Shown in pieces: positions 35,320 through 49,319 of a stretch of DNA of 64,000 nt. This DNA comes from Octopus vulgaris (taxonomy: Eukaryota): contig OX597824.1 in the NCBI GenBank assembly GCA_951406725.2, positions 64,046,001 through 64,110,000 on the forward strand. The letters run 5' to 3'. A program made the translations under genes and the position numbers. A model generated the notes under the pieces. The model did not search any database. It worked only from the letters and a program-made list of their open reading frames with translations, and was not told the origin of the DNA. Numbering within the stretch: position 1 is the stretch's first letter; the number at the start of each line of letters is the position of its first letter.

Positions 35320-36301
35320 ATGTTTTAATGCTTACTATTCTATGCTTGCATATGTTGTGGCACAGTTTCCTATAGTTGGATGCCTTTCCTGTAACCAACC
35401 CTACTTGTTTCTAAGCGAGATAGTGATCTCACAATCCGACAAACAAAAGCACACCCTGGACATTTTTGCATGAAGAACTAGAAATGGACAACACCTTGAG
35501 TAAAACCATTGTTTGCAATCAGCAAATGAAAATATGTAAACAAGGGAAATATAAAATCACTTACACACACACATATACATGCACATCAAGTTTCTTTCAA
35601 TATCCATCAACTAAATCCACTCACAAGGCCTTGGTTGAGCCAGGATTATTGTAGACAACACCTGCTTAAAAGTGTCATGCAGTAGGACTACCATGTGAAA
35701 CCAAGCAGTTGGGAAGCAAACTACTTAACCAAAGAAATATGCTTGCATCTACATAGATATGCCCTGTGCCAGAAACTATTAGAAGAAGAATAAAGGAATA
35801 ATGTCTAGTTAGTACTTACTTGACACCTCTTTCTCGCAGACCATGCATAAACAATTCGTTACTATTATCAGGTACAGATGGTACGTTGTTAAATCTTTGG
35901 TTTGGTGGTCCTATTTTGTCTGGCCTGTTTCAAAAGGGTAACAGTAAACAATAAATAAATAAAATTAATTAATTAAACAGGCCAATTTCAAATTTAAAGA
36001 TGGTTTTCTGATTATTCATGAGCATATGTAAGTATAAAAAAGAAGTACACATAAATTCTTAGTTTGCCAGTCCATCCATTGGTCCCTCAGTAAGTCCATC
36101 TGTTGATGGGTCTGTCAATCTGTAGGTCCATATACATACACATACTAGCTTTAAATACAATATCTGTAATATTGTAAACTTATATCTATACATACACACA
36201 TGTATATGCACTTACACATAAATAAACATGTGCACACATACACATATATAGTAGATGTAGATATATATGCACACACTAGTTTCAGATACAATATCTGTAA
36301 T

Positions 36302-36343
<42 letters not shown>

Positions 36344-37937
36344 TACACACACACATAATTTATGTAAGGTATAAGTTAGAAATGCTTAAACCCTCTAAAG
36401 GATAGATATCTTCCACATAGAAGGCATGCTAATAACTAACTATGAGACCTTAGATTCAACCAACCTCTGTTCTTCATTTACTTCACAATGGATTTAATGA
36501 ACTTTGAACCTAACTAAAATGTAAGACTTTCGAATCATTGAACATTTTTGTTTTCCCCGATTTTTCCCTCTATCTTTCGCTCTCTTCTCCTTTTTGTCTA
36601 TCTCAGCCTTTTTCGTTCTGATGACATCTACCATTTGCAACAAGGTAAATACATATTTACCTCAACATGGTACACAGAAACAGCTGTAAACTCACTCTTA
36701 CCCTGACCTTGCTTAACTAATTAAATAATGGCTTTTTAGCATCAACAACACACTTCTCATTTTCCCTCCATTTTCTTATCATCTATATATATATATAATT
36801 TAATTATTAATTTAATATATAAATTGCTTATAAATTTTTATTCCATGCTGACTACCTAATATTAATCATTAACATGATTTTTATCCTCATTTTATGTGTG
36901 ACTATATATATATATATATATATATATTTTAAATTGAGGATAAAATCTTTATAAGAAATTATCAGTAGTTAGCGTGAAAAACCTCGTAAGAGAAAAAATC
37001 TGTAAATTTTTCCACTTTGAAAATATTTATTTATATTATATAGAGGATACTATTATTCATAGGTACCGCACGCTAGGAGGGACTCTTGCAGTCAAAACTA
37101 CTAAAATAAACAAATTGTACCGAATGCAAAACTTCAAAGCAAGTCATTTAAAGCCATTTTCATAGATATGTAAAGATACACATTCGTACATGCTACGACA
37201 AATTCTACGGTTGGCTGTCGGGTATGCTATATTGTGTTTTTTCCTTACATGTCTTGAGTTCGTTGCACTGAAGAGCATAGAATGCATATTCTGCATTGAT
37301 TGCGAAATCACAGGTGATATGTAACTAAATTCTGTTTTTAAATGACTTGCTTTGAAGTTTTGCATTCGGTACAATTTGTTTATTTTAGTAGTTTTGACCG
37401 CAAGGGTCCCTCCTTGCGTGCGTATCTATGAATAATAGTACCCTCTATATGATATAAATAAATATTTTCAAAGTGGAAAAATTTACAGATTTTTTCTCTT
37501 ACGAGGTTTTTCACGCTAACTACTGATAATTTCTTATAAAGATTTTATCCTCAATTTTAAATTTATATTTTTCACCGGAATAGTTCAATACTGAATTTTT
37601 GTTCCGAGTAAGCAATTTGTTACCGAAATGCATTGCGAATAAGCCTGCCATTTTCATAGATATGTAAAGATAAACATTCGTACATGCTACGACGAATTCT
37701 ACGGTTGGCTGTCGGGTTTGTAATGTTATGTTTTTTCTTATATATCTTGAGTTTGTTGCACTGATGAGCGTAGAATGCATATTCTGCATTAATTGCGAAA
37801 TCACAGGTGATATGTAACTAAATTCTTTTTTTAAATGACTTGCTTTGAAGTTTTGCATTCGGTACAATTTGTTTATTTTAGTAGTTTTGACCGCAAGGGT
37901 CCCTCCTAGCATGCGGTATCTATGAATAATAGTACCC

Positions 37938-37972
<35 letters not shown>

Positions 37973-40900
37973 ATATGTATGTGGATGATGAAGTTCCATA
38001 TAGAATTAGGAAAGCAAGTGTTGCTTTCGGAAGGCAAGAAAAGCGCCTCTGGAGTCGGCGAGACATATGCAGAAAGACAAAGATAAAAGTGTACAAGGCA
38101 TGTGTGCTCCCTTCTCTTCTCTATGCCTGCGAGACGTGGGTCACATATCGATACCACCTTAAACATCTGGAACGTTTCCATCAGATGTGCCTCAGACGGA
38201 TCTATAGCATTAAGTGGAAGGACCGCAGTGATCTTGAAATACTCGAAGGCTCTTGATGTGAAAGTATAGAAGCTCTTGTGTTAAAGCAAAGGTTCAGATG
38301 GAGTAGTCATCTAGTCAGAACGAAGGATTTAAGGATGCCAAAATAACTCTTTTAGAGTTAGCTAAAGGAGAACGACCTTCACATAAACCAAATAAGAGGT
38401 ATAAGGACTTGCTGAAGGCTTCCTTAAGAGATGCTTGCATCTCTCCTGACAAATGGGAAGGCATAGCTATTGATCGTAGCAGGTGGAGAAGGATTGTGCA
38501 TGAGGGGACAGCCACGTTTGAGAAATCTCGAGTTGCACATGAGAAAGTAAGGAGGGATGTCAGGAGGGCATCGCTGTTACACTTCCAGAAGGGTCTTCCT
38601 TTGATTCTGACATGCAATGTCTGTGCAAGACCCTGCCTCAGTAAAGCCAGACTCATGAGTCATCTTCGTAGTCATAAAACGAGACAGATGAGTGACAACC
38701 TGGCCACTGGTGGTGGTGTAACACACCATACTTATCATATCTATCGGGCATGTAGAAGAGAGTGTAACTCGGCAGGAGGACTTATACGACATGCAAAGGT
38801 ACATGAAGCCCAGTTACAACTACAGCTGGCTATTACCAGTAAAGGTTTTAGTTGCCAATTTTGTACAAGACATTGTAGATCTTTAGCTGGGCTAAAAAGT
38901 CACATTCGATCACAGCACCAGTAACAGTTAAGCTTCATGCAATGACCATACTCAATAACAAGGGGGCAGCCATAATGTATATGTGTATGTATGTATGTAT
39001 GTATGTATATATGTATGTATATACACACATACATACATACAAATATACACATACACACTCAATACCCACATAACACACTCTTGTTTCAGATACAATATTT
39101 GGAATTGCTATTACAAATGTTAAAAAGTTAAAATAAAAGAGAACTAATCAAAAAGATATCATATTGATTTGTGAAAAATGATTATCTCAAGAAAATAATT
39201 GTTTCAGACTAAATTAAAAAGTAACTCTTCAACTTCCAGAAGGTACCTTCCCATCCTGGGGCCTGAAGTAGATTTGTTCCACTTTGTAAAATGTCACTTG
39301 GAACCTTCTTTATGAATATATTTTCATTGAAATGCTTGCTTATGATGTAACTGATTTTGAAAATAATCTAGAATTTGGAAAGAGTAAGGCTAAAACTTAC
39401 ATGTAAGGTTCATGATGATGTGGAACTGGTCCTCTGTTGGGTCCCATCTGGTTAGAAATAAAACAAAACAAAATATAAATAAAACTAAAATAAAATAAAA
39501 GTAAAACAATAGATAATAAAGTCTAATAGCCATTCGTTTAGGCTAAGTACAAAGTAATTTTTTCCCTACATTATAGTAGTTTGTATGTTTCTAGTAACAT
39601 CTTTTATCAACCACCTCAAGGAATAAAGAAAAATTGATACTGATTTGAACTGAGAGGCTTGAAAACTGAAATAATTTTATTAAATATACATTTTATTCTG
39701 TTATAATCAGTGAAGAAAAAAACAGTTAAAAACTATTGCTTGGCTCGAATATAAGCAGGTCAGTACTAACAGCAGAAAATGGAGAGTGAGAAAAACAAAG
39801 TGTTGTTTAGCCTTTGGTCATTTTTAAATCAAACAGACTATAAATGTATTCCAGCTGTGACCATCACATCTTTTTAAGCACATTATCATTTCTTTTAAAT
39901 TACTGCCTTCAGAACACAGTAAATATTGTTAAAACTAGGCATTCATTGTTTCCCAATTCAATGTGGCCAATTTTTATTTGATGGGTTGCCCCCATCATCA
40001 TCATCATAGATAATGTATAGGCACTGATGACTACACTTAAGAAATTATGAAATTTTTTAAATAAGTCAGGAGAGAAGATCAGTATCCACAAACTTTTACA
40101 GCAGCCATGAGGCTGGTGGGAGGGAAGTGTTAAGGTACCTTCATATTGGTGACCCGGCTGAATAGTTCCAGTGTGAACTCAACTAAAGGCAGATGGTAGA
40201 GTCTTTCAGACCATCAAAGTTGATCATAATGAATGCTTAAACAATCAAGAAGAGGAAGAAGAGTGAGTTAGAGAGAGAGACAGTCAGAGTGAGAGAGAAA
40301 AATAGATGATGTTGAAAATGCATTGAGACCTACTCAGATATAACACTGAGGGGGAATATAAGTGGTACAGAGGGGATAGAGATGGGGAAATGGTGACTGT
40401 AGCAACTGATGGTGAGATAAATTGAAGTGGCTAGGGGGAATATTGTAGATGCATGAGGGTATGGAGAGAACTAAACATCTATTCACTGAAACCAGTTTTT
40501 TTTTTCTTTTTTTTTGGTCAACTAAGGCCATAATACTTTTATGACAAACCCAACCAGCCCATAGCCTCATCTCTGCTTTGATAATTACCCTACTTCAAAA
40601 AAAAATTTATACTTCAATATCAACGATATTGTCACGTAAAAGCACCATCCGAACGTAGCCGATGCCAGCGCCTCCTAGACTAGCTTCTGTGCCATTGGCA
40701 CATAAAAAGCACCAATCCGATCGTGGCCGTTGCCAGCCTCGTCTGGCACCTGTGCCGGTGGCACGTAAAAAGCACCCACTACACTCACGGAATGGTTGGC
40801 ATTAGGAAGGGCATCTAGCTGTAGAAACACTGTCAGATCAGACTGGAGCCTGATGCAGCCTTCTGGCTTCCCAGATCCCCAGTCGAACCGTCCAACTCAT

Positions 40901-42566
40901 GCTAGCATGGAGAACGGACGTTAAACGATGATGATATGATGTCACAACACTTGCATTCAGTCATAAATTCAACAAGGACAGTCAACATCAACATTACCCT
41001 CCTCAATCTACAACAACCATAAAATATGAACATACTTAAACATACATTCACACATGCACACACATACACAAATAAATTGATATATCTGTCTAGTAATGTT
41101 CTAACATTCTATGAACCAAATAATGGCACAATTTCCTGCATCAACTACCTCTCAGACCAAGAGAAACTGACACTGCAATGTTTGGTAACCCAGTTGACAC
41201 TCTTCCTTTCATTATACCTTAGAATTATCAACCTTACTTTGTAAGATGATTTGCAAAAAACTGAAGTGTCAATAGCACAAGGAGCGGTGCAATGGGTAAA
41301 TTGTCGCCTTTTATATTCTTAATTTCACACATGTGCATTGTTTGTTTTGATTTTGTCAATTACACAGTACAGTAGGGTCAGTTGGGCACTGTCTGTGAGA
41401 AAAACAGCACCATGACGCAATTCACCCTACCAGAAATTTGGAAATGAAATGCTGTACTGCTTGGTATTCATGCTGGAAACTCCAATACGAACATTTCAGA
41501 GTTTTGGGTGTCAATCTGAGGACAGTGCAATCCGAGGACATGTACCCAGAGTGATAAAAATCAAACATCCACTCAACATCATGGTGTTTGGAGTGATCAC
41601 TAATGATGGTGCTGTTATGCCTCCATTCATCTTTCCACATAACCTCACTCTCAACACAGAGGCCTGCATCAAGTGCCTGGAGGAGGTAGTGCTGCCCTGG
41701 CTCAAGAGGATGGCTGCTGAAAGACCCTATGTCTGGCAACAGGACTCTGCACCATGCCACACAAGCAGGAGAACCCAGTCATGGCTGTCAGACAATTTCT
41801 GCAACCACATCACCATTAACATCTGGCCACCTGACTCCCCAGACTGCAACCCCCTTGATTATTATGTGTGGGGCACAGTTGAGCAAAAGACCAACAAAAC
41901 TCCTTGTAACACCAAAGATGAACTGAAAGGAAGGATTATGACAGTATTCACCAACTTAAACAGGGAGACCATCCGAAAGAGTTCCAGGAGATTCCGAAGT
42001 CGTCTGGAGGCTGTGGTTGAAGCTAATGGCAATTTTATTTAATAAATTTACTCTTTAGTATTTCAAGATATTTTTATGTTATTTTGGTAAATATATCTGT
42101 TAAAATGAGATGTCAATGTTATTTTCATTTTTGCATAATTCATATGACAATTCATTCACTGCACCCTGTATATATGAATAAAGTTAGCTAAGGCTGGTTT
42201 ATGGGATTTTATCAGCATGCCATTTTAAGAATACTTTCTCAGTACACCACTTTATTTATATAATATACTGCTCTATAACTTTATATAATATACTGCCCTA
42301 TAACTTAGAGTGTGCTTCTTTTTCGGATATATGTATTACCGACAAGACATATATATTTATGCTCCAAGATATATCTCATGAATGCCTTGGGATGCATCAT
42401 CAGAGATGTTTCTGGGATCTCAAAGGTTTCAAGTCTTTCAATGTCAGACCACCCTCACTCAGTTGACCTAGTTGGGGTTGATCAAATCCCAGCTTCCATT
42501 CCAATAGCAGCATACTGCCATCTTTATCCAACTCCACTTCATTTGCATGGATATATATATATATAT

Positions 42567-45277: not shown

Positions 45278-48200
45278 TGCATATATGTGTACAGGACATC
45301 ACCAACAGTTCAAACATGAAATATGTAAACAAACGAATTAAATATGTAAACAACAAGAAAAAAATAGAGAACAGGACAAGTAAACACAGAGAAAGAACCT
45401 GTCATCAGTTGTTGGCTGTCTATCTATTCCTCATTTTGAACATTCAACGACAATATGAGTTTTCAAAAACAGTTGCTTCCATAAATTCTAAAATAAAATT
45501 TAGCACTTATGGAGGGTCAATGTTGGGAACAAAAACATGACAGTGGTGACATACAAGGAAACCAAATGAAAACAAACACGGAGGGTCATTAGACCAGAAT
45601 GAGAGGAAAATAGTGAATTAACTACTGCAATGCATTACATTTTGGTCAATGCTCTACAATCCTACCAAACAATTTAAGGTACAAAGCCTGAATTCTGAGA
45701 AAGGAGTTTAGTCGATTATATCAACCCCAGTGCTTAACTGGTACTTTATTTTACTGGCCCCAAAAGGATGAAAGGCAAAGTCAACCTTGGCAACATTTGA
45801 ACTCAGAATGTAAAGCCAGAAGAAATGCTACTAAGCATTTTGTCCAGTGCCTTAACAATTCTGCCAGCTTGCTGCCTTAACAATAATAATCCTTTCTACT
45901 ACAAGCACAAGGCCTGAAATTTTGGGGGAGGAGGATAGTCGATTACATCGACCCGGGTGTTTCACTGGTTCTTAATTTAATGACCTTGAAAGGATGAAAG
46001 GCAAAGTCAACCACAGTGGAATTTGAACTCAGAACATAGCAATGGGCAAAATACCGCTAAGCATTCATCCAGCGTGCTAATGATTCTGTCAGCTCACCAT
46101 CTTAATAATAATAATTTTGTCCAGCATGCCAACTATTCTAACTCAGCAGAATTTAAACTCGAAAGAAATGCCTCTAAGCATTTTTCCTGATGTGCAAACA
46201 ATTCTGCCAGCTCGTTGCCTTAGAGTAACTCAACAGGCATGATAGAGCTGCACAATATATTCACTGGGTAATTTGCAAAAGCCTGGACTTGCCTCATGAT
46301 AAAAACTGGTGGGAACACAAACCACCTCCAGTGCTTGAAAATGACCACATCTCACTCCTCTGGAACTTCACCATTCAAACTGACAGAAAGATAGATGCAA
46401 ATAGGCCAGACATCATAGTAAAAGACTTCAGACAAAAAACATGCCTCCTCATTGATATGACTGTCCCAATCGATAAAAACGTATCTGTCAAGACCTACCA
46501 AAAACTGAGCAAATATAAAGATCTTGAAATAGAAATCAGCAAAATGTGGAACCTGAAGACTAAAACAATACCTGTTGTCATAGGTGCCCTGGGAATGATA
46601 GCAAAAGGGGCTGATTGTTACCTAGCTCAGATACCAGGAAACCCAAAAATGGCAGAAATTCAAAAGATGGTGCTCATGGGAACTGCTCATATCCTATGCA
46701 AAATACTTTCCATGTAATCTCAAGTTTTAAAACAAACATAATTTCCGTATGGTTTTTTTTACACATTCACTAGTACAACACTAAGTACAAAACCAAATAT
46801 ATGGCACCCTAGGCAAAACACCAAACCGAACTTCCAACTTGTCTCTTGAGGTCTCTGGGTGAGACTTGGAGCCAGCTTGTGCAAATGTAAGGCAAAAGTC
46901 AAACATAGAATAATAATAACAACAACAACAATCCTTTCTACTATAAGCACAAGGCCTGAAATTTGCAGGGTGGGGGCCAGTCAATTACATCAATCCAGTA
47001 CTGATCTGGTACTTATTTCATTGACCCCAAAAGGATGAAAGTAAAGTCAACTTTAGTGGAATTTGAGCCCAGAATACAAAGACAGAAAAAATGCTGCTAA
47101 GCATTTTGCCCAGCATGCTAACAATTCTGCCAGCTCACCACCTTGATGATGATGGAAAAACCACTGATCCAGGATTAACTTGACACCTAAGGACAAATGA
47201 CATCTCCCAGCTGTATACTCTGGCTTACAGGCACACCCTGAATTTATGTTCACTCACATGGGCCAGTTTTACCACTCACATTCACACCTCAATAAATGCA
47301 GTGAAGGGCAGCAACTCCAATCACCTCCCTCTCCAAGCAGGACTGATGACAGCTTGGCTATAATGAAAAATGTCTGCCTACAATCTTTTCAATCATGTCT
47401 ATAATACACTTGCTTTTGCCAGAGCTATCAGAGGAAAACAACCAAAGAAAAGTAATAGGGAGATGCTCACAACAGACTTGATGGACAGCCTTTCAAAACA
47501 ATTGTACAGGCAATGCACTCTTGTAAAATGAGTACCTGCAGAATGATCTTGTCATTCTGTACACATCTTAGGCAAGTCTGTAGTGTTTATCTCAAACTGA
47601 TAATATCTGTATTAATATTGCCATATTTGAGATTAAAGAGTTGAACAAAACGTTGCTGGAAATAGTGGAGCAAAAGGCTACTGAAAAAACTGCATACAAT
47701 TACCTAGATCAAGGCTTCTACATTAATTCCAGATTAGTTTTCCTGGAATTACTTAAAAAGGTCCAAGATTGTGTCCCCTCTCACAAAGACAATACATTCC
47801 ATCAGCTACCAGATGTCCAGATCTTGTAGTAGATTCAAAACATTCACGTTTGTCACTCACTGATCCATGGATGTTGGATTCATGGTAAATACCTTATTTC
47901 TACTTGTCAAGGGAATGCCACAAAAATGTGAACTGCTTAATGGAATTTTAACTTCCATTGCCGCTATATCATGTAATAATGATATTAACAATGTCAAAAG
48001 ACTAGAAATTTTGAAACCACAAGTTTTATGGATGGACTAGGACCCCAATATTTAACTGGCACTTTGCTTCTAAAGTTTATGAAAGGCAAAGCTAAATAAC
48101 AACTAGAAAAAATGGTTTTTGATTTATGCACAAGGTGAGATTTGTAAGGGAATTGATTCAAACAATATTAGTATATGACTTTTACTCACTTTATTGATTA

Positions 48201-49319
48201 GAGACTATTGAAAAAAAAAGGTTGATTTCCTGTAGAATAAGACTAAAAACTGAAAGGTATTCAGTTTAGCTCTTTACTACACTCTTCTTGGTCAACAACA
48301 GCAAGAAGATGGACAATTGAAGCAAGAATTTTTAAAAAAATGAGAAGGAAGAAAAAGGTTGATGAAAGTAAAAGAAAGAAAAAATAGAAGAAATTAACAA
48401 AACTAGGAAATAAAGCACCAAGAAAAGCCTTACCAATAAGTTGAAGGACAATTTGAACTTTTGAAATATATCCACGAAATCTTGTGGCTTGGGTGGTAGA
48501 GCACTCATTGTCAGTTTTTCTTCTGTAATGAGAATAGAAATGAAAATGTTTGAGCAAATGAATATAACACGTCAATATTGATCATAATTTAAATAACAGT
48601 TTCCTACTTAGACACAAGGCTAACTTAGAACAGGTGTAGCAACAGCTAAGATTTGTTGATGAAGCCAGAATTAACTAAAAATATGTCCACAGTTGGCTCC
48701 CATACTCGCAGAATATATGAAAACTAGTGATTTCTAGTATAGAAACAAAAACAATACTAATATAGTAAAAGTGTGACGATTAGGTGACACAATACAAAGG
48801 AGATGGGAATCACACTACAAAGACTGTGACACAATACTATCATACTAGCAGGACTCATAGTATAAATCAGAGGAAAGAGTTTCAAAAAATTCTTTTGATA
48901 CCTTGTCATTTAATAAGGTATTGCTTAACTACCTCCATGTAATACATTTGACAGATATGAAGTAGTTTATAGCTTAAGGAAATGAAAAATGTACTAAAAT
49001 GATAAAACTTATTTATATGTATTGATTAAACGTTTATTATTTACAGTTTTGTTAAATGTCTGTCCCTGTGCTTTATTTACTGTCAGAGAGTAGGACAGCC
49101 TTACATGGAACTGAACAAATTTGAAAATGAAGGTTGGAGTTATTAGGAGCCAGTTGCATGTGAGATATTAGTAAGTGCATTCCTTCTTGTTCACCTGCTA
49201 TTGAAGTGGCTTCAATGCAATTATTGTGAAGGCTGCCCTTGTTCACTTTAGTGACATATATATTTTTGCCTTTGGGTAGTAAAATTGCTAATTAGCCACC
49301 CATATTATATATATATATA

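Follow-up and report, generated by a model that had tools for sequence, protein, structure and literature searches.

Links between ribozyme-bearing repeats and Penelope elements have already been proposed, in that retrozymes would be moved by these elements or descend from them (PMC7229834, 10.64898/2026.07.22.740005); in the available text of the latter source, the link rests on co-occurrence and repeat homology. A mobilising enzyme and a circular template for animal retrozymes have likewise been proposed and not demonstrated in the portions of PMC7229834 and PMC7761336 drawn on here. Penelope-like insertions, according to the accessible part of PMC8557442, are recognised by partial tandem copies, by a 5'-truncated copy in inverted orientation, by a tail at a single end and by a bias for (TA)n. 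As described in the excerpted text of PMC11167929, the enzyme of the anole element makes nicks in either strand of AT-rich DNA in vitro and has two internal RNA start sites, the spacing of which equals the tail. Activation of hammerheads as dimers through a palindromic helix III is also a known arrangement, according to the part of PMC4209133 available.

The window, i.e., the whole stretch of DNA that was analysed, is 64,000 nucleotides long and comes from Octopus vulgaris (contig OX597824.1). It holds a 494-bp non-coding repeat in which two or more successive units each carry a type I hammerhead; the repeat is multi-copy and lacks an LTR-retrozyme layout. Judged from its sequence and insertion structure, the repeat represents a new family of animal non-LTR retrozymes, and with it a non-autonomous Penelope-like element, of a kind that is already known. 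A literature search, with supplements (which could list cephalopod motifs) outside its scope, found no cephalopod retrozyme family, and two fixed ends with opposed arms were not found described for retrozymes in the text available to that search.

Organization of the Locus

An earlier note on this DNA had reported a repeated unit, which is present as a direct repeat of 37153-37446 and 37647-37941 (276 of 293 aligned columns identical, two gaps, spacing 493-494), but it had overlooked the inverted arm at 36920-37152 and the flanking (TA)n. The inverted piece equals unit positions 185-416 and is identical to 37337-37568 at 224 of 232 positions. The whole element spans 36920-37937 (~1.0 kb) and is made up of two back-to-back arms inside a (TA)n tract (Table 1).

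Table 1. Features of the element in the window and loci of its sister family; unit positions 1-494 are numbered on copy 1
Feature	Positions	Strand	Remarks
(TA)n tract, target microsatellite	36903..36927		Overlaps arm end; TRF: period 2, 12.5 copies
Left inverted arm	36920..37152	-	Unit 185-416; "416-type" end; without ribozyme; mostly subfamily A alleles
Right arm, unit copy 1	37153..37646	+	494 bp
Hammerhead 1, type I, subfamily A	37256..37332	+	Stem I and extension; core CUGAAGA 37268-37274; stem II 37275-37303; GAAA; palindromic helix III 37307-37318; predicted cut after 37319
Predicted 493-nt monomer between both cuts	37320..37812	+	
Interval of allele switch, subfamily A to B	37335..37398	+	Unit 183-246; left bound set by one site
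Tail region between the family's two fixed arm ends	37445..37568	+	Bounds ~unit 293-313 and 409-416; TA-like sequence obscures the precise termini
Right arm, partial unit copy 2	37647..37937	+	Unit 1 to ~293; "313-type" end; subfamily B
Hammerhead 2, type I	37749..37825	+	Core CUGAUGA 37761-37767; predicted cut after 37812
(TA)n/(TATG)n tract, right end	37938..37980		From tandem-repeat search
Host intron, EPS8-family gene	35929..39400	-	Exons either side: 35820-35928 and 39401-39447
Sister-family loci	L188-L216		E.g. L194 and L197; L194 is a tandem with 453-nt spacing

The antisense placement relative to EPS8 stated in the earlier note is supported by a Pfam EPS8_2nd match (E 3.2e-07) on the minus strand at 48338-48571, in an upstream exon. 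A contig from run X20 joins exon 35820-35928 to sequence located at ~31109 and ~39414. A PTB search of the whole genome missed the window, and the gene was identified by the EPS8_2nd domain instead. An empty site was searched for in four further runs, in which no contig spanned the (TA)n tracts. Among the neighbouring sequences, a 5'-truncated, frameshifted LINE fragment with C2H2 zinc fingers at its end adjoins the right (TA)n at 37981-38924 (+); its resemblance suggests that it may be RTE-type. A DDE_3 transposase fragment lies at 41416-42042 (+), and a second transposon-like frame at 46229-46717 (+).

A Dispersed Family and Its Sister Family

The genome searched comprises 2.8 Gb in 227 contigs. 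A DNA search, the check on copy number put forward in the earlier note, gave 2426 candidates, 40 of which were scored. Exact patterns for the ribozyme and for the 3' segment matched at 185 and 237 places genome-wide, with 0 matches for each reversed control; as decayed copies escape exact patterns, the family likely comprises several hundred segments. After removal of duplicates, 136 fetched loci yielded 105 distinct insertions with 167 arms, exact duplicates and L004, L093, L118, L132, L133 and L134 having been dropped before counting. L083, L093 and L132-L134 represent a single insertion that segmental duplications on contig C1 have multiplied together with its flanks, and the family copy at L111:3324-7186 sits within a local inverted duplication of ~2.7 kb of flanking DNA. 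Contigs resembling the family also occur in assembled sequencing runs that are not on record as RNA.

A sister family, for which an initial look gave 1651 candidates, is ~76-80% identical to the unit and colinear with it. Its layout is the same, with matching arm ends and a covarying hammerhead. In one of its copies (L204:1393-1495), the 19 nt that open the core region of the ribozyme are repeated three times. The monomer of the family in the window has no protein-family match, and the only frame noticed there, a 138-aa stop-to-stop frame on the minus strand, has no Pfam match. Copy numbers, insertion ends and the absence of linkage to an ORF all support the earlier description of the repeat as retrozyme-like, non-coding and mobile.

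Hammerhead Motifs and Their Constraint

All core parts of the two type I hammerheads first described in the earlier note, whose predicted cuts lie 493 nt apart, were found in both copies. Each copy holds GUUGCA, CUGANGA, a two-part stem II, GAAA, AUCACAGGUGAU, the AUA triplet and UGUAAC, in agreement with a type I architecture of a CUGANGA / GAAA / NUH core and three helices with stem I open. The Rfam search that had been suggested came out negative, with nothing from the hammerhead families reaching E<=1 in a search of 5 kb or E<=10 in one of 631 bases; a match in Rfam is not a defining biological feature of type I hammerheads. A model made from 28 family and sister-family copies, which the window motifs match by construction, scores them at 100 and 97 bits and has no further match within the window at E<=5. 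The hammerheads stand above chance, because the ribozyme pattern recurs exactly across the genome while its reversed control does not, and because compensatory changes occur in the stems relative to the sister family.

Stem covariation, another check named earlier, was indeed seen against the sister family. Across 14 family and 14 sister copies, 95.8% of stem cells are paired, compared to 12-46% in slid controls. Two stem pairs have changed on both sides (C-G to U-A and A-U to G-C), several others on one side, and substitutions in stem I retain pairing. This covariation is modest evidence, as it reflects mainly one event between the two families. Within the family, the core is about twice as conserved as the rest: among copies found by their 3' pattern, differences occur in 7 of 618 core cells and 488 of 19644 cells elsewhere (1.1% vs 2.5%). 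The full core is kept in 46 of 52 unbiased copies, also found by the 3' pattern. By these comparisons, the ribozyme is under constraint.

Predicted Pairing of the Two Hammerheads

The earlier note had proposed a better-formed helix III, which holds on paper, as 4 bp can be drawn; the hairpin, however, is worth merely -0.6 kcal/mol, compared to -13.2 kcal/mol for the two-copy duplex. Helix III is a palindrome that is predicted to pair between the two copies. Its innermost pair encloses just 1-2 nt and can therefore form only between copies; nonetheless, this pair has been retained, being C-G at the present locus, G-C in L042 and A-U in L227, the latter two belonging to unrelated hammerheads. 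Those two (L042:2953-3029, minus strand, and L227:2325-2402, plus strand) are canonical type I hammerheads with a different palindromic helix III; they lie near Penelope ORFs and are likely further retrozyme families.

All fold energies given here are nearest-neighbour predictions that exclude tertiary contacts; on this basis, the lone motifs do not fold best as hammerheads (-15.6 vs -18.2 and -15.5 vs -20.5 kcal/mol), and the unconstrained minimum free energy structure of 37230-37860 is a double hammerhead in which each core is open, more stable than a structure with one single hammerhead by 3.7-3.9 kcal/mol and than one with two by 7.3 kcal/mol. Among 11 distinct tandem loci, the probability of an inter-copy helix III is at least 0.4 in four (0.44 here and 0.78-0.91 in the other three) and at most 0.1 in seven; that of a single-copy helix III exceeds 0.07 in one. 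The two hammerheads of the window are predicted to work as a pair. The 493-nt monomer (32% GC) has a stable predicted fold (z -4.65) in which its ends are brought together via stem I. When circularised, it is predicted to mask the core, the opening of which would cost 3.6 kcal/mol. The junction of such a circle would not be diagnostic, because a tandem of genomic units yields an identical junction.

The Insertion Footprint

The 3' ends of the arms are fixed, with 75 of the 167 near unit position 313, 74 near 416 and 18 elsewhere, and the 5' ends are variable. Two-armed insertions (n=53) pair a 313 end with a 416 end in 44 cases; two are 416/416, none is 313/313 and seven have an unclassed end. 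Tracts of (TA)4 or more are entered by 142 of 150 classed arm ends, the exact base of which is blurred because both end regions are themselves TA-like. The cut site is crossed by 105 arms, 42 are longer than one unit (the longest reaching 1334 nt) and 12 contain at least two ribozymes. The insertions have the anatomy of Penelope copies, combining partial tandems with a 5'-truncated copy in inverted orientation, a tail confined to one end and a (TA)n bias like that of Neptune and Naiad. The two fixed arm ends would correspond to a Penelope-type tail of about 105-120 nt.

A pile-up of 5' ends at the cut site, as a sign of cut linear templates, was considered and is not supported. Among 63 insertions found by the 3' pattern, 18 of 74 arm 5' stops fall in unit 165-194; a post hoc Fisher test of this gave p 0.016, but 123 of 500 permutations did equally well. 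Six stops fall at unit 165-171 compared to 2.2 expected.

Relation to Penelope Elements and Candidate Drivers

In the earlier note, a retrozyme was opposed to an ordinary pseudo-LTR, the latter to be concluded if full copies always sat on coding Penelope elements. They do not in the loci examined; the alternative itself, however, is not either/or. As the insertions carry Penelope anatomy, the element is both a retrozyme and a non-autonomous Penelope-like element. It is considered non-autonomous because none of the copies examined, a sample of loci, continues into a Penelope ORF, nor is an RT and GIY-YIG ORF attached to the repeat in the loci sampled. Arms that extend upstream always enter another unit, and the 52 single-armed insertions have no common non-unit sequence upstream beyond one TA-rich pair. 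Two Penelope proteins of this genome match 6 of the 196 loci from the family and its sister, a total that counts duplicates, and none of the matches is in register; the matches near units are on the opposite strand, downstream or, at the single locus L179, upstream.

Potential partners were sought in two sets. For GIY-YIG proteins, a Pfam search was used in which 150 of 6136 candidates were scored and 49 loci read, with L048 excluded as non-Penelope-like; for a second abundant Penelope-like family, 150 of 9495 candidates were scored and 30 loci taken, 29 of them in the model search. No unit homology was found in the Penelope 3' regions of the 49 GIY-YIG and 30 second-family loci. An intact 781-aa frame with RT and GIY-YIG domains is present at L080:945-3287, one of many copies of the same length; a canonical hammerhead was sought in the 2 kb downstream and none was found. 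A long open frame also lies upstream of it. Copies of the second family include L224, L239 and L240, whose 3' regions are pyrimidine-rich and have a minimal hammerhead-like motif (UGAAGA..GAAA) and (TA)n ends. The copies read of both families terminate in (TA)n, and the 781-aa family and the second family are candidate drivers. The label "Neptune-like" used below rests on the cysteine linker. Such a linker is also named in the available text of PMC8557442.

Template Evidence and the Mosaic Unit

At polymorphic sites, parts of one insertion differ by 9.9% when in tandem (39 pairs) and by 8.4% when opposed (53 pairs), compared to 22.7% between insertions; 48 rare alleles within insertions are common to their parts and 274 are unshared. 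No credible recurring difference specific to a unit position was found in 37 long arms. One candidate for a dimer master, a difference at unit 323-324, was an alignment artefact of a 1-nt insertion in all units, and other recurrent differences between tandem units were scattered or came from a local duplicate (L111/L253). The shared alleles favour repeated copying of one unit, as would occur on a circle; they would also be expected if the template were a linear multimer of uniform units, or if gene conversion had acted afterwards.

The A/U difference at core position 7, previously regarded as free variation, is actually one of 10 subfamily markers by which the units differ. Unit 1 is of subfamily A at 10/10 diagnostic sites in 72-182 and B-like from position 247 on, and unit 2 is of subfamily B at 10/10. 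Clear mosaics were seen in 2 of 124 loci, the window and L018, both with the boundary between unit 182 and 247. A switch exactly at the cut site (167/168) was rejected, since both mosaics change at 182-247 instead, the evidence being one site. Such mosaics would be explained by a template switch between two RNAs or by later gene conversion.

Proposed Mechanism and Alternative Explanations

The reading we hold with reasonable confidence is that these are dispersed, protein-free 494-bp hammerhead repeats copied by a borrowed Penelope-type (Neptune-like) RT/endonuclease from a one-unit RNA, probably a circle. A tandem locus would be transcribed on the ribozyme strand, and its motifs are predicted to pair through the palindromic helix III as a double hammerhead that cuts at both sites. 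By analogy to other retrozymes, the resulting monomer may then be ligated into a circle with its core masked. A GIY-YIG endonuclease, as the (TA)n footprint suggests, would nick (TA)n, and reverse transcription would start at two fixed AT-rich internal sites ~105-120 nt apart, one per DNA strand. Each cDNA would terminate at a variable point, and the two, joined back to back, would form the opposed arms observed, which often run across the cut site and past one unit. Several observations count against this explanation. One circular template alone cannot give the mosaic in the window, and of the frog dimers predicted in a vertebrate survey, 8 of 9 did not cleave (10.64898/2026.07.22.740005, available text). 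An inter-copy helix III is improbable in seven of the 11 tandem loci, core conservation is only about twice that of the rest, the 49 GIY-YIG and 30 second-family loci yielded no matching autonomous partner, and Rfam has no hit.

A more specific version is that the cycle is gated by dimerization: only tandem loci would cut, the circle would be locked, and a pair of Penelope RTs would start at the two internal sites, roll past the ligated cut site and be able to swap between co-bound subfamily RNAs, a swap of which the mosaic in the window would be the record. This version is put forward tentatively, as a possibility that we rate below even chance. If it were true, the dimer-gated 494-nt RNA would be a minimal defined substrate for showing that Penelope enzymes mobilise ribozyme circles.

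The borrowed-enzyme reading has to be weighed against one in which the same non-autonomous element is copied from uncut linear tandem transcripts, its hammerhead being inherited without a template role and no circle being formed. All Penelope footprints fit this equally, the cut site is frequently crossed with no significant pile-up of 5' ends there, and in the accessible text of PMC11167929 the anole ribozyme mutants insert normally, cleavage being unneeded for insertion and uncut RNA the main template. Internal starts on a linear RNA, however, would be expected to shorten the element each generation, whereas several subfamilies and the sister family have arms of more than one unit with internally matching alleles; no array exceeds 2.7 units in the loci examined, which take in the first 100 of the 185 hammerhead places, and the stems have been preserved by compensatory change. 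On balance, we consider copying from uncut RNA unlikely, if still the most serious competitor.

Far less probable is that the repeats are ordinary pseudo-LTR remains of a coding Penelope with full-length copies lying outside the sample. The anatomy is the same as that of coding Penelope insertions, and GIY-YIG candidates number in the thousands in this genome, the loci read being the 49 and 30 mentioned above; at L179, an old endonuclease fragment lies 1.07 kb upstream on the same strand. The spacer at L179, however, consists of unrelated repeats and the arm there is without a ribozyme; upstream extension elsewhere leads into a further unit and never into common ORF sequence, and the sister family behaves in the same way in 30 loci. 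A satellite-like repeat spread by DNA recombination, with a hammerhead that is there by chance or dead, could account for the tandem units, the few copies in segmental duplications and the lack of an Rfam hit, but the arms, with their fixed 3' and variable 5' ends, opposed orientation and targeting of (TA)n, bear the footprints of retrotransposition, and compensatory pairs are present in the stems. The satellite reading is largely refuted by the end structure, and we give it almost no credence.

Comparison with Known Systems

The family supplies a Penelope-enzyme insertion footprint on a protein-free ribozyme repeat, for which two start regions are mapped and a dimer switch is predicted, and the questions of enzyme and template are thereby reduced to single experiments. 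The locus itself contributes a predicted double hammerhead, a sister family whose ribozyme covaries, and the mosaic unit.

In the available text of PMC7229834, PMC7761336 and 10.64898/2026.07.22.740005, the animal non-LTR retrozymes of coral, mussel and axolotl are alike in having a non-coding tandem unit with one type I hammerhead per unit, GC below 45% (32% here), a stable monomer fold, hundreds of copies and coexisting Penelope elements. The family lengths reported there, 51-972 bp, include 494; the unit nevertheless exceeds the 170-400 nt reported for invertebrate retrozyme circles. Its arms, mostly of 0.3-2.7 units, differ from the long arrays of retrozymes, and a dimer is predicted to be necessary here, whereas most of the invertebrate retrozyme motifs tested cut as monomers.

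Endonuclease-bearing elements of the Neptune and Penelope/Poseidon clades, as covered by the accessible parts of PMC8557442, PMC11167929 and PMC4209133, share the partial tandems, inverted 5'-truncated copy, one-end tail, (TA)n targets and a repeat hammerhead with a palindromic helix III. Unlike them, the octopus family has no ORF, a tail of ~105-120 nt rather than 30-40, and a full canonical hammerhead in place of the minimal form. Both arm ends are TA-like here, a possible sign that priming involves base pairing; initiation by the anole enzyme, in contrast, is at non-homologous sites. The double hammerheads of newt and axolotl satellites (PMC4209133 and PMC7229834, text available) are similar in the weak or palindromic helix III that is predicted to pair between tandem copies; in the octopus family, a 4-bp helix III hairpin is also possible, and the arrays are short and dispersed.
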